Numbered from the stretch's first letter, positions 2,164 to 20,440 are shown. The stretch: 21,681 nt of DNA from an uncultured Candidatus Bathyarchaeia archaeon (GCA_964450845.1 CAYVGZ010000018.1:1-21681); one strand, 5' to 3'. A program made the numbers and translations. Notes: a model not told the origin generated them from the sequence alone.

Positions 2164-2169
2164 AAAAAA
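2164..2169 (-). terminator. Putative U6-tract terminator of Lys-rich micro-gene copy A
   Basis: T6 on the minus strand, 27 nt after the micro-ORF stop. Copy B has T7 at an equivalent 28 nt. Confidence 0.45.
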
Positions 2170-2196
2170 GGAGAGTAACCTATCGCTGTTAGCTTT

Positions 2197-2253
2197 CTAT
2201 TTAGTTTTCTTCTTACTTCCTTTTTTCTTCTTTCCAGTTGGACTTTTAGGCAC
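2197..2253 (-). CDS. Lysine-rich micro-peptide, copy A (MPKSPTGKKKKGSKKKTK, 18 aa)
   Basis: GTG start 6 nt after GAGGT, TAG stop, 9/18 Lys. Paralogous to 20025-20078 in upstream element and in the AAGAAGAAAAAAGG (KKKKG) core. Confidence 0.6.
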   Translation of the reverse strand: MPKSPTGKKKKGSKKKTK

Positions 2254-2258
2254 GTCAA

Positions 2259-2300
2259 GACCTCGAATCTATAATACTCAGTGATTTCTATATATAATCT
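2259..2300 (-). promoter_or_regulatory. Promoter/leader of micro-gene A: TATA box (TTATATA 2297-2291), conserved element and GAGGT RBS
   Basis: Minus strand TATAGAAATCAC-TGAG-TATTATAG-ATTC-GAGGTC (2292-2259) is 29/34 identical to 19985-20018. Confidence 0.6.
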
Positions 2301-6099: not shown

Positions 6100-9000
6100 G
6101 TGAAGCTTTTGAAAAGAAAACTCTTCGCAAATAGAAGAGGAAAAATCAGAAAAACCTTCTTTTGGATAATGTTTCCAACCATTATTATCAATATGCTTGG
6201 TCTGTTTCTCAGTGTTCAGACTGTGGCTTTAGGTGCTAGTTCAAAAAACACTGCTGACGGAGACGCCTACCTAAAAGCATCCCTTGGCAAAGAGGACAAC
6301 GCTATTGTGAAGGTGGTTGAACACAAAATCACAGAGAGCGAATTGGAGGAGTTAAAACTTGAAATGGGTGTTTACCAAAATAATGTCACTTACAATAAGA
6401 TATTTGATGGACACGGGACTGGACTACATCCTCCAACAGAGAGCAAATGGATAAGCATTGCTGAAGAAACACTTATCGTAGATAAAATTTTGTGGGTAAA
6501 CGCATCTATAAGCGCGCCCTCCTCCGTAGATCACACAAATTCATCGTGGTTCCCACCAATCGGAAACCAAGATGGAGAAGGTTCATGCACCACTTGGGCT
6601 GTGGTGTATTACATGAAGACTTTTCAGGAGGCAAAAGAACACGGATGGAATCTGTCTGGAGCAACTTGGGAAGGTGGATACAGTGGGCATCCAAGCTTGG
6701 CGTATCAGGACAAGATTTTCAGTCCAGACTTTGTTTATCATCAAATCAATGATGGGGTTGATGAGGGGTCATGGTTTGATGATGCAATGGACTTGGTGTG
6801 TTCAATTGGTGCCTGTACTTGGGAGAAAATGCCTTACGATCCCAATGATTCAGTCACGTGGCCTTCTGAAGAGGCTTGGCGAGAAGCCCCGTTATATCGT
6901 GGCAATAGTACAGGATTCGAATCTATGTATCTAAATACGGTTTATGGTGTTGAAAATCTCAGGAACTGGATAGCCTCAGGCAATTTGGCGGTAATTGCTA
7001 TAGATGCTAACAGTTACGCAAGTCTAACAAGTGATGATTTGTGGACGTTGGATAATTATGAAGAAATGGAGTTGAATCATGCGAATACGATAGTTGGATA
7101 TGACGATAATTTCGCGTATATAGAAGAGGGTGTACCCCGTCTTGGAGCTTTCAAGATAGCGAATTCTTGGGGTGTGGGAGGATGGGAAAATGTTGCTGAT
7201 GGTTGTTACTGGATGTCTTATGAAGCTATGAAGCAAATTGTTAGTTATGCCTACTTTTATCGTGACAGAATAGCCTATGAACCGAAAGTGTTTGCCTCAT
7301 TCAAAATAGACCATGCTGAAAGAGACAATTGCGACATAACATTGGGAATAGGAGACAAAAGTGCCCCCATTCTGACAAAAGAGTTGGAAATTTGGGATTA
7401 TCTAGGCGGTTCCTTGCCCTTTTGTTCTAATAACATAGTTGTTGACATAACGGAATTTGAAGGTGGCGTGCCAACTGTTATTGGTCAGCAGTTCTTCATA
7501 AGGATATATGAACCGGGATACCTCTCCACGCTGGGAACAATTCTTGATTTTTCAATCGAATATTATGAGAATTACAGTTCTCAGGCTCCACTTGTTGTGG
7601 CGATATCTGATGATCCTCCAGTTGACACTGTAACCAACGATTATGTCTATGCAGAAGTTACATTACTTTCCAGCGTGAGTATCGAATATCCTTCTAGTGG
7701 ACAATATGTTGACGGTACAGTAGCTATTACGGGAAGTGCGTACCAATATCGGAGGCAAGAGGTTTACGCCGAAGACTTCAATCATGGAGGAAATATGCCA
7801 AGCGGCTGGATGGTGTATAGCGCTGGTCCCGATGTGCATCCGTGGACTATAGAACTTAGGGCTGATTGTAAAAAGGATTACTGGGCAGAGTGCAATAGTA
7901 ACGTGCTCCCCACTACCACAAACATAACAGAATGGTTGTATATGACAGATAGTTTCAATGCGACAGGCTACTCGTCGCTTGATCTTGAATTCTATTCATA
8001 CTACAGATCCTTCACTGGTCCTGAATATGCACAAGTTCTGTACGCAACAAGCCAAAGCTATCCCAACTTCACTGTATTGGAAACTTGGGACTCAACTGGG
8101 AAAAGGCACCACCACATCAGCCTTACCGCTGCTGCTGGAGATCCAGAAGTTCATTTAGCTTTCATATACCATGGAATATGGGATTACTATGTAGAGGTTG
8201 ACAACATAGTTGTGTATGGTCTGAAAACATTAGACGAAGTAGCAGTAAAAATAGACGACGAAGATTGGAACATTGCCACTGGAACCACCTCTTGGACTCA
8301 CAACTGGGATACCAATGCTTGCCCCAACGGAAACCACACAATCACCGCAAGGGCGCATTACGGAGTAGCCCATACTGAAGCATCAATAGATGTCTTTGTT
8401 TGCAATAACCTAATCTATATTGACGAGTTTTTCGTCTCAGACAATCGCTGCAACGTGGGTTCCATGCAAACGGTGGGATGCCATGCAGTGTACGCAAAAA
8501 ACGGTTCAAACGTAACGGAAGGAACAATATGGGTGAACGGCACAGGGCATTCAATCAACAATACAGGATGGTGCGCATTTGACGTAACATCCAGTAATGT
8601 TGGGAAAAATACGTGGACAGTTACTGGCGTCTCATGTGATGGAACGCAATACTACGAGGTTACCGCTTCCAGTCCCTACATAATATTTGACAAAGTAAAC
8701 ATAATTTTAACAGTTAACGATACGCGAATAGATGTTGGCTCAGAAGCTTCTATCAACTGGACTGGAATTCACGCATATGATGGAACAACCTTTATGGGCT
8801 CAATCGCATTAAATGATACCTTAACGAAAAATCAAGTTGGCATATACAAATTTACATGCGCTTCAATTTCAGATTCGCAGTATGGCATAACAGCGTTCGA
8901 TTCTAACGAAGTTTATTGCATCTGGGATAGAATCAAAATTTCAAATGGCGGAGTCACCCATTCATCAACAAACATAACTCAAGAAGAAACAGTATGGTTT

Positions 9001-9639
9001 ACAATTGAATATGAATATGATGGAAGCGTACCTTTTTCTGGAGAAGTCTACATCAACAACACTCTAGCCACTTATTCAACGCTCAACGACAGATGGGAAT
9101 ACAACTATACTCTTTTCTCACCCGAAACCATAACTTTCAGCGTGTCAAAAATTGTTGACAACCTTTATGGACTGACAAATGTAAATGACGCTGTAGGACC
9201 TTTGCCCATAACATGGCATCATTTCCAAATTCTGTACGAAGGAGAAACCTACGTGATACCCATAACAACAAACAGCCATGTTTCGAACCTTCAATTTAAT
9301 GCATCACTTAAACAAATCATGTTCACTGTCTCTGGAGAAACAGGAACCATGGGATACTGCAATATAACCATACCCAAAACTTTGTTAAAAGCAGAACCGT
9401 TGGAAGCTTGGAAAGTATTTCTTGATGGCTACCCGCAATCGCAATACGTCGTCACGGAAAATGATACTCATACATTCATCTACATGAATTACACTTACAG
9501 CAACCACGGAATCCAGATACAAGGAACTTGGGCAGTAACAGAGTTTTCGCCAACCACAATTCTGCTACTATTGATGCTCAGCACCATGTTCACAGTGGCA
9601 CTTAGAAGGCATGCGAGGAAAACTCGTCAAAAATGCTAA
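6100..9639 (+). CDS. Secreted, C-terminally anchored papain-like (C1A) cysteine peptidase with Ig-like and adhesin-like domains
   Basis: Signal-like N-terminus; Q157/C163 (GNQDGEGSCTTWA), H327 (NHANTIVGY), N355 (IANSWG); beta-rich C-terminal domains; ends in VTEF + hydrophobic helix + basic tail. Confidence 0.9.
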   Translation: MKLLKRKLFANRRGKIRKTFFWIMFPTIIINMLGLFLSVQTVALGASSKNTADGDAYLKASLGKEDNAIVKVVEHKITESELEELKLEMGVYQNNVTYNKIFDGHGTGLHPPTESKWISIAEETLIVDKILWVNASISAPSSVDHTNSSWFPPIGNQDGEGSCTTWAVVYYMKTFQEAKEHGWNLSGATWEGGYSGHPSLAYQDKIFSPDFVYHQINDGVDEGSWFDDAMDLVCSIGACTWEKMPYDPNDSVTWPSEEAWREAPLYRGNSTGFESMYLNTVYGVENLRNWIASGNLAVIAIDANSYASLTSDDLWTLDNYEEMELNHANTIVGYDDNFAYIEEGVPRLGAFKIANSWGVGGWENVADGCYWMSYEAMKQIVSYAYFYRDRIAYEPKVFASFKIDHAERDNCDITLGIGDKSAPILTKELEIWDYLGGSLPFCSNNIVVDITEFEGGVPTVIGQQFFIRIYEPGYLSTLGTILDFSIEYYENYSSQAPLVVAISDDPPVDTVTNDYVYAEVTLLSSVSIEYPSSGQYVDGTVAITGSAYQYRRQEVYAEDFNHGGNMPSGWMVYSAGPDVHPWTIELRADCKKDYWAECNSNVLPTTTNITEWLYMTDSFNATGYSSLDLEFYSYYRSFTGPEYAQVLYATSQSYPNFTVLETWDSTGKRHHHISLTAAAGDPEVHLAFIYHGIWDYYVEVDNIVVYGLKTLDEVAVKIDDEDWNIATGTTSWTHNWDTNACPNGNHTITARAHYGVAHTEASIDVFVCNNLIYIDEFFVSDNRCNVGSMQTVGCHAVYAKNGSNVTEGTIWVNGTGHSINNTGWCAFDVTSSNVGKNTWTVTGVSCDGTQYYEVTASSPYIIFDKVNIILTVNDTRIDVGSEASINWTGIHAYDGTTFMGSIALNDTLTKNQVGIYKFTCASISDSQYGITAFDSNEVYCIWDRIKISNGGVTHSSTNITQEETVWFTIEYEYDGSVPFSGEVYINNTLATYSTLNDRWEYNYTLFSPETITFSVSKIVDNLYGLTNVNDAVGPLPITWHHFQILYEGETYVIPITTNSHVSNLQFNASLKQIMFTVSGETGTMGYCNITIPKTLLKAEPLEAWKVFLDGYPQSQYVVTENDTHTFIYMNYTYSNHGIQIQGTWAVTEFSPTTILLLLMLSTMFTVALRRHARKTRQKC

Positions 9640-19971: not shown

Positions 19972-20018
19972 ATAGAAAATTTTTTATAGAAATCACGCAG
20001 AATTATAGGTTTGAGGTC
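19972..20018 (+). promoter_or_regulatory. Promoter/leader of micro-gene B: BRE-like AGAAAA, TATA box TTTTATA (19982-19988), conserved element and GAGGT RBS
   Basis: 19985-20018 is 29/34 identical to minus strand 2292-2259. Confidence 0.6.
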
Positions 20019-20024
20019 ACAATC

Positions 20025-20078
20025 GTGGCTGGATCCAAAACAAAGAAGAAAAAAGGGAAGACAAAGAAAAAGAAGTGA
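20025..20078 (+). CDS. Lysine-rich micro-peptide, copy B (MAGSKTKKKKGKTKKKK, 17 aa)
   Basis: GTG start 7 nt after GAGGT, TGA stop, 10/17 Lys. Paralog of 2197-2253. Confidence 0.62.
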   Translation: MAGSKTKKKKGKTKKKK

Positions 20079-20106
20079 ATTAACAACCACTAGACCAAAC
20101 ATCCTC

Positions 20107-20113
20107 TTTTTTT
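20107..20113 (+). terminator. Putative U7-tract terminator of micro-gene B
   Basis: T7 run 28 nt after the stop, mirroring copy A. Confidence 0.45.
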
Positions 20114-20167: not shown

Positions 20168-20440
20168 CTAATCTTCTCCCAAAATGAGCAACAAACCGCA
20201 TAAAATGTTTAAGCCACCGATAAAGCCTAAAGCACCAATAAATATTATGTTAAGTCTTGCTGAAAGAACAGGGTCTGAGGGGGTAATCAAAATATATATT
20301 CCAAAAGCGAAAACCAGAAGACCACAAGTAATCATTAACCCACTCAATTTTGAACCTAGCCGCCTAACAATGTTGAAAACTTGATAGCGTTCTTCTTCCA
20401 CTGTATTTTTTAAGAGTTTATCCTCGCCTTCTTCGCCCAT
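20168..20440 (-). CDS. Small two-TM membrane protein, probably co-transcribed with the APC permease
   Basis: 90 aa with an acidic N-terminus and two long hydrophobic helices. Starts 6 nt after the permease stop. Confidence 0.7.
   Translation of the reverse strand: MGEEGEDKLLKNTVEEERYQVFNIVRRLGSKLSGLMITCGLLVFAFGIYILITPSDPVLSARLNIIFIGALGFIGGLNILCGLLLILGED

Follow-up and report, generated by a model that had tools for sequence, protein, structure and literature searches.

Lysine-rich micro-protein genes of Bathyarchaeia: a probable family of stand-alone units with a possible charge-based function

Several kinds of very small, strongly basic protein have been described. eL41/eS32 (PF05162) is an archaeal and eukaryotic ribosomal peptide of ~25 residues that is extremely basic, is encoded by a stand-alone gene and is often missed by gene callers. 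Thx, bS22 and bL37 are bacterial, tiny, polybasic and arginine-rich, and each is fitted to a specific site of the ribosomal RNA (rRNA); other tiny polybasic ribosomal proteins are rich in arginine too. In the H1-like lysine/alanine/proline tails, and in bacterial H1-like nucleoid proteins such as Hc2 of Chlamydia (PF07382), lysine is combined with alanine, glycine, serine, threonine and proline, and there is hardly any arginine. Here we describe a lysine-rich open reading frame (ORF) of 18 codons that lies, together with its own promoter-like and terminator-like signals, on the minus strand at positions 2164-2300 of a 21,681-nucleotide (nt) stretch of DNA (hereafter the window). The window is the entire contig C18 of a metagenome-assembled genome (MAG) of an uncultured Candidatus Bathyarchaeia archaeon (GCA_964450845.1 CAYVGZ010000018.1:1-21681; 1.64 Mb in 120 contigs, 93% complete). 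A homologous unit with an ORF of 17 codons is present on the plus strand at 19972-20113; we refer to the two units as copy A and copy B.

The lysine-rich units resemble eL41 in being tiny, extremely basic and stand-alone, but unlike eL41 they lack the arginine/tryptophan motif, and they vary in copy number and length. Like Thx, bS22 and bL37, to which there is no detectable homology, they are highly charged, belong to the tiniest proteins and are often missing from annotations. With the H1-like tails and Hc2, compared by composition only, they share the make-up of the chain and the disordered, charge-driven binding to nucleic acids that may be expected of it; H1-like proteins, however, have tens to hundreds of residues and contain repeats, often on a folded domain, whereas the whole product of the lysine-rich family has 12-23 residues.

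The evidence presented below is that of conservation and composition. Judged from these sequences, the unit is very probably a micro-protein gene and not a small RNA gene, and we put the probability that it is a real translated micro-protein gene at roughly 0.85-0.9.

Coding character and spread of the lysine-rich ORFs

The combination of a Shine-Dalgarno (SD) motif, a lysine-rich ORF and a T tract is far beyond chance. A filter that demanded an SD-like motif upstream, 11-30 residues, ≥50% lysine or arginine and a T5 run ≤50 nt downstream was passed by three ORFs in the whole 1.64-Mb genome, namely copies A and B and an out-of-frame reading of an acidic micro-ORF discussed below. The 34-nt element upstream of the ORF has exactly two matches in this genome, one in each copy. 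The copies align with 77% identity over 203 columns, and each measures 101 nt from the first G of GAGGT to the last T of the tract, as the earlier note, made on the window alone, had claimed.

That note had described a family of two members, which proved too small a number: at least four types of peptide occur, genomes have 1-4 matches each, and at least 56 genera are represented. A covariance model that used sequence only, with four units as its basis, found matches in 96 of the 151 genomes of the same GTDB family, distributed over 56 of its 70 genera. Of the 69 loci fetched from other genomes, 67 contain a complete unit, from the SD-like motif through start, lysine-rich ORF and stop to the T tract; 58 have GAGGT, a spacer of 5-8 nt, a start codon, a lysine-rich ORF of 13-23 codons and a stop codon, and nine have the same unit with GAGGC, AGGT or GGTG in place of GAGGT. 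One of the two remaining loci carries a one-base deletion. Together with the two window copies, the 67 homologs make up the 69 units that were read, whose ORFs have 12-23 codons. A 7-nt spacing between GAGGT and start is found in 58 of the 60 units extracted, GAGGT is invariant in an alignment of 55 sequences (A4), and an A/T-rich box is located ~24-26 nt 5' of GAGGT in every aligned homolog. The T tract of the homologs lies 27-32 nt 3' of the stop and is usually preceded by CCC. The four recurrent peptide types are type A, which resembles copy A, type B, which resembles copy B, and types C and D, which are close to MAKAAKGKKKKAAKKK and MPKATKGKKKKPAKK, respectively.

A second model, based on 55 units, matched strongly only within the same family and, outside it, in a single genome from a sister family of the same order. 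Weaker matches were obtained in seven other families of Bathyarchaeia, where ~10 of the 21 loci examined have an SD-led lysine-rich ORF of 14-28 codons followed by a T tract; these may be distant relatives, homology being beyond proof for such sequences. A 21-nt motif taken from the unit matched nine public records, all of them MAGs of Candidatus Bathyarchaeota/Bathyarchaeia and several from peat or soil projects. In 301 Thermoproteota genomes, a generic pattern of SD, start and four lysines occurred at about the rate of the reversed control, except for the units of the Bathyarchaeia family and for another family, f58, that is considered below. A six-frame search of 201 genomes of the class with an 18-position peptide profile returned only the query and, being insensitive, is uninformative on distribution. 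A search for archaeal AmoA gave no match in the genome of the window, nor in the control genomes, and is therefore uninformative as well.

Among orthologs, no part of the unit is conserved as well as the ORF, the leader and the 3' stretch both falling below it. In 27 disjoint nearest-neighbour pairs, chosen to reduce pseudo-replication, the ORF diverges by 0.106 per site, the preceding 25 nt by 0.21 and the following 25 nt by 0.42, and the differences at codon positions 1, 2 and 3 number 41, 30 and 66 (binomial p = 2e-4). Third positions have the highest column entropy in all three length classes: the values for positions 1/2/3 are 0.70/0.59/0.88 bits in the 17-codon class, 0.34/0.36/0.59 bits in the 16-codon class and 0.15/0.11/0.38 bits in the 18-codon class, compared with 0.74-1.51 bits in the 3' untranslated stretch that belongs to these ORFs. 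Differences in ORF length are whole codons, indels being multiples of three, and TAA, TGA and TAG alternate at a single aligned stop position. Start, frame and stop are all kept in the ten type-A orthologs (17-18 codons), and BLAST found orthologs of copy A in two relatives with 85-87% identity and an intact ORF; in the ~25 type-B orthologs the frame is kept and the stop is TAA, TGA or TAG at the identical position. Nonsynonymous changes are conservative, and both the non-lysine positions and the exact length are kept within each type. Neither the other sense frames nor the antisense strand contains an open stretch that is conserved among the homologs. An ORF of 64 codons in another frame, which had been said to hide copy A from the gene track, does exist (Table 1); it was rejected as a gene since its frame is not conserved, and it is an accident of the purine-rich sequence.

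The composition of the ORFs is equally specific. In 58 distinct ORFs there are 530 lysine codons and 2 arginine codons; lysine in this family is not interchangeable with arginine. A change from AAA to AGA, which turns lysine into arginine, is a single transition. No aromatic residue occurs in the family. The exchange between AAA and AAG that was to be expected of a coding sequence is seen, and AAG makes up 52% of the lysine codons of the family versus 34% in the long ORFs of the genome. The longest A run has a mean length of 5.3 nt, compared with 7.5 ± 0.24 nt after AAA and AAG had been shuffled within ORFs; none of 2000 such synonymous shuffles was as low as the observed mean, a statistic inflated by shared ancestry, and the effect is present in all types. 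Ribosomes tend to slide and polymerases to slip on long poly(A) stretches, and the avoidance of long A runs is in keeping with a sequence that must be copied and read without error. Altogether, the ORF is under protein-level selection, as seen in its frame, start, stop, codon-position pattern, lysine-specific composition and avoidance of long A runs.

The start codon is unusual: GTG is used in 65 of the 69 units, ATG in two and TTG in two, while the surrounding bases vary. A rough count of the SD-led long ORFs of the same genome gave 169 ATG, 80 TTG and 38 GTG starts (~13% GTG).

We found no described family that covers the peptide, neither among curated families nor in the literature searched, in agreement with the earlier note, whose author had not recognised one. 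A profile made from the peptide alignment had no match to PDB sequences at E up to 10. A 23-residue lysine-rich relative had no Pfam or NCBIfam match at E up to 1, the other peptides being below the 20-residue minimum, and its exact sequence is absent from a collection of 15 billion proteins. The literature searched holds no description of a lysine-rich micro-peptide family; one match for 'lysine-rich' concerned the K-boxes of eIF2-beta and was set aside as irrelevant.

The two copies and their surroundings

The positions of the elements in both copies, and of the other loci discussed, are collected in Table 1. The box, GAGGT, GTG, 18-codon ORF and T6 tract of copy A, as well as its homology to copy B, had all been read correctly, to the base.

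Table 1. Positions of the elements of both units and of other loci mentioned in the text (window positions unless a contig is named; G000 is the genome of the window)
Feature	Position	Strand	Basis or detail
Copy A, T6 tract preceded by 27 nt of 3' untranslated sequence (predicted archaeal terminator)	2164..2196	minus	T6 at 2169-2164
Copy A, lysine-rich ORF of 18 codons, MPKSPTGKKKKGSKKKTK	2197..2253	minus	GTG 2253-2251, stop TAG 2199-2197
Copy A, SD-like GAGGT, 6-nt spacer to start	2264-2260	minus	read directly
Copy A, 34-nt promoter-proximal/leader element common to copy B	2259..2292	minus	genome search
Copy A, TATA-like box TTATATA	2297-2291	minus	read directly
64-codon ORF overlapping copy A in another frame	2115-2309	minus	rejected as a gene
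1179-residue ORF	6100-9639	plus	
Copy B, purine-rich AGAAAA, like a B recognition element (BRE), and TATA-like box	19974..19988	plus	read directly; arrangement kept in type-B homologs
Copy B, TATA-like box TTTTTATA	19981-19988	plus	read directly
Copy B, match to the 34-nt element	19985-20018		genome search
Copy B, GAGGT, 7-nt spacer to start	20013-20017	plus	read directly
Copy B, lysine-rich ORF of 17 codons, MAGSKTKKKKGKTKKKK	20025..20078	plus	GTG 20025-20027, stop TGA 20076-20078
Copy B, 28 nt of 3' untranslated sequence and T7 tract	20079..20113	plus	T7 at 20107-20113
90-codon ORF	20168-20440	minus	
Acidic micro-ORF of 20 codons, MPEEEEWEEEEEEEWEEEEW	G000:C25:8300-8362	minus	
Likely eL41 homolog (L115)	G000:C4:13656-13727	minus	PF05162, six-frame search
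Acidic/lysine-rich pair of family f58 (L160)	G577:C1:186500-193500		
Acidic/hybrid ORF pair of G057 (L146/L162)	C11 ~170265-170350	minus	

The peptide of copy A contains nine lysines and that of copy B ten. Copy A is flanked by a gene for an HtrA-like protease and one for a UbiA prenyltransferase. Copy B is located 3' of the Nre gene and faces the convergent 90-codon ORF and an amino-acid permease gene; since this next gene is convergent, copy B cannot be the leader of a downstream gene. In relatives, type-B units are mostly found between a Na+/H+ exchanger gene and a gene for a 549-residue protein without a family, and type-C units between the gene for the S component of an energy-coupling factor (ECF) transporter and a tandem ferritin-like gene. 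Synteny is kept within each type and differs between types, which fits old, vertically inherited paralogs and not a gene that belongs to one pathway. The view that each unit is a stand-alone gene with unrelated neighbours is thus borne out by flanking genes that vary between paralogs.

The window also contains genes for archaeal Nre, UbiA, the HtrA-like protease and adenylosuccinate synthetase, among others. The 1179-residue ORF has no Pfam match above threshold, and a faint match to a bacterial immunoglobulin-like domain (22.7 bits) is below the cut-off. The 90-codon ORF has no Pfam family, and a related ORF occupies the same position beside the permease gene in three relatives.

Proposed function and its rivals

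In the reading that we favour, each unit would be a self-contained, monocistronic gene of ~100 nt, in which an archaeal BRE/TATA promoter would drive a short SD-bearing leader and an oligo-T terminator would end the transcript, and translation initiated at GUG would yield a peptide of 17-18 residues. The encoded peptide is ~50-60% lysine, the remainder being glycine, alanine, serine, threonine and proline, and has a net charge of ~ +9 to +10; having no hydrophobic core, it must be disordered. Its action would most likely depend on charge and nothing else: as a small polycation free to diffuse, it would bind polyanions and neutralise them, with nucleic acid as the likeliest target, comparable to a free histone-H1-tail or protamine-like segment. 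We infer transcription, translation, the polyanion-binding role and its target from the signals and the composition described above, and give a charge-based binder of polyanions, mainly of nucleic acids, a probability of about 0.5. Of the roles that had been proposed in the earlier note, the one comparable to eL41 is disfavoured by the genome's own eL41 homolog and by the use of lysine nearly without arginine, and the protamine- or H1-like and polyanion-binding roles stand as plausible proposals.

Several points weigh against this reading. Nucleic acid is not distinguished from other polyanions as the presumed target. The almost universal GTG start has no explanation in it, although such a start possibly limits the output of a polycation that could be harmful. 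In many units of types A, B and C, a gene on the same strand starts ~100-180 nt past the stop of the micro-ORF, and the unit may therefore have a cis-regulatory role, by read-through of the terminator into these genes. Finally, the units are related by descent, so that the shuffle and binomial figures overstate independence.

The rival that survives best holds that the lysine-rich peptide pairs with an acidic protein made of glutamate (Glu) and tryptophan (Trp), the two acting by charge neutralisation, by mutual chaperoning or in condensates. A translation-related context is possible because the acidic gene lies beside ABCE1. The genome of the window has exactly one SD-led acidic micro-ORF with its own terminator (Table 1), which is unannotated. 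Its product begins with methionine and proline and continues solely with Glu and Trp; the ORF has the ribosome-binding site GGAGGTGA and its own T tract, and is located 127 nt upstream of ABCE1. This acidic locus is conserved in 95 of 101 genomes of the family, and ABCE1 follows on the same strand ~125 nt downstream in 18 of the 19 loci fetched. The acidic peptides are repeats of about four Glu followed by Trp, and nearly all that were read end in Glu4-Trp-stop. Of 301 Thermoproteota genomes, 122 have this signature, most of them a single time, compared with about 12 matches for the control; several other classes again have it ahead of the start of an ABCE1-like gene. Four acidic micro-proteins had no Pfam or NCBIfam family, and the exact sequence of the peptide encoded in the genome of the window is absent from the collection of 15 billion proteins.

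A lysine-rich ORF next to an acidic one also speaks for such a pair. In the Thermoproteota family f58 (L160, L120 and L121), a protein of 90-94 residues combines a LysW-like zinc ribbon (PF21344, 30 bits; NCBIfam LysW/ArgW, 38.5 bits, below the cut-off) with a long Glu/Trp tail; its gene is followed by a hairpin and a T tract and then, 45-52 nt past its stop, by a lysine-rich ORF of 14-15 codons (MAEKKPEEKGKKKKK). Upstream of this arrangement, one of the genomes (G577) has a TldD/PmbA gene pair; a gene for a Na+/H+ exchanger is close by. Within the family of the window itself, genome G057 has an extra acidic ORF that ends in Glu5-Trp, and 35 nt past it a hybrid ORF of 23 codons that starts lysine-rich and ends in Glu-Glu-Glu-Trp, both placed among MgtE and PhoU/TrkA-C genes. 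These arrangements suggest that micro-proteins of opposite charge, one polycationic and one polyanionic, are able to act together. Against this, the joint pattern is rare, being found in 4 of 401 genomes (with none in the reversed control, and a fifth listed match that is an internal acidic repeat); the acidic and the lysine-rich genes are unlinked in the genome of the window (contigs C25 and C18, respectively) and in nearly the whole family; and the sequences are too short and too low in complexity for the f58 peptides to be shown homologous to the Bathyarchaeia family. We regard pairing with the acidic protein as unlikely.

An extended version of this idea would make the lysine-rich peptides and the ABCE1-adjacent Glu/Trp peptides the two components of a polycation/polyanion system in Thermoproteota, with the ribosome or ribosome recycling as its site of action. 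The acidic tail, which ends in Trp, could imitate the tail of the ribosomal stalk, the oligolysine peptide being its antagonist or its co-condensing partner, and the rare tandem arrangement of family f58 and genome G057 would represent the ancestral operon. We consider this distinctly improbable.

Slightly less probable than pairing with the acidic protein is a ribosomal or ribosome-associated micro-protein that would be buried in rRNA and have a role like that of eL41/eS32, bacterial Thx or bS22. The size, the charge, the strong SD and the stand-alone signals of a kind that goes with high expression are all like those of tiny ribosomal proteins, and a tie to the acidic peptide beside ABCE1, if there is one, would point loosely to translation. 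When the genome was searched in six frames with PF05162 (E up to 10), a single locus came up, with 17.2 bits against a cut-off of 22.3 bits. This locus, likely an unannotated eL41 homolog, has the eL41 motif rich in arginine, lysine and tryptophan; GGAG resembles an SD, GTG may be the start codon, and the stop is followed by a T tract. In that it may begin with GTG it is like the lysine-rich ORFs, which is consistent with a ribosomal role. However, neither micro-ORF of the window was matched by PF05162, and as the genome has its own eL41 homolog elsewhere, the lysine-rich ORFs are not eL41. Moreover, arginine accounts for only 2 of the 532 basic codons of the family, whereas the eL41 motif is rich in arginine and contains tryptophan. 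The variation in number of matches per genome and in length, and the loose residues outside the lysine runs, are unlike a peptide fitted to a fixed rRNA pocket, and no lysine-rich unit is located inside a ribosomal-protein gene cluster.

It is also conceivable, at a level of likelihood comparable to that of the two-component system, that the micro-ORF is regulatory, in which case its translation would matter and its peptide would not: stalling on the lysine codons would sense the supply of lysyl-tRNA or translation stress, and would tune the stability of the mRNA or read-through past the terminator into the gene downstream. The runs of lysine codons, the T tract 27-32 nt past the stop and the frequent same-strand gene within ~100-180 nt fit such a device, and an inefficient GTG start would suit it. 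Yet the downstream genes, for UbiA, the 549-residue protein without a family and the ferritin-like protein, are unrelated to one another and to lysine metabolism, and the gene next to copy B and its orthologs is convergent. The conservation of non-lysine positions and of exact length within a type, along with conservative nonsynonymous changes, also speaks against a peptide that is of no consequence, and long A runs, which are the strongest signal for stalling or sliding, are avoided rather than favoured.

A long-range stem between the run of lysine codons and the C-rich T-tract terminator, which appears in every minimum-free-energy fold, was rejected as a selected structure: the z-scores of the folds are not significant, and compared with synonymously permuted ORFs, the pairing between ORF and terminator has a mean z of -0.03, and because permuted ORFs pair equally well, this pairing is not under selection. 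A classical leader-peptide attenuator is therefore unlikely, given downstream genes that vary by type or are convergent and an ORF-terminator duplex that is not above synonymous permutations. A small hairpin that would sequester the SD and GUG in types A and B was dropped since type C does not conserve it.

It is very unlikely that the unit is a non-coding small RNA, rich in purines, in which the ORF is incidental. In favour of this reading, the unit is short and has a promoter and a terminator, its very purine-rich tract might base-pair with targets rich in pyrimidines, and the folds contain the long-range stem. Against it, a Rfam scan (gathering thresholds) and a tRNA scan of the window gave no match, fold energies do not surpass those of shuffled sequences (z-scores of +0.69 to -0.83), the consensus fold is weak (alifold, -1.6 kcal/mol, with one covarying, compensatory pair), and conservation follows codon phase, with start and stop kept, whole-codon indels and three stop codons in use.

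Significance for Bathyarchaeia

Genes of this size are too short for gene callers and for the protein databases and search tools applied here, so that whole conserved families can be overlooked. The two genes described, of 18 and 17 codons, show clear protein-level selection over dozens of genera of Bathyarchaeia, a group sampled here mainly as uncultured MAGs from peat and soil. Their family combines three unusual and testable traits: an almost obligatory GTG start, lysine nearly without arginine, and the avoidance of long A runs. The unannotated Glu/Trp micro-protein encoded directly upstream of ABCE1 may merit attention in its own right in connection with archaeal translation. If the lysine-rich peptides are indeed made as abundant polycations, they would represent a new class of small, charge-based regulators of nucleic acids or condensates in archaea, and would offer a concrete target for non-tryptic proteomics.

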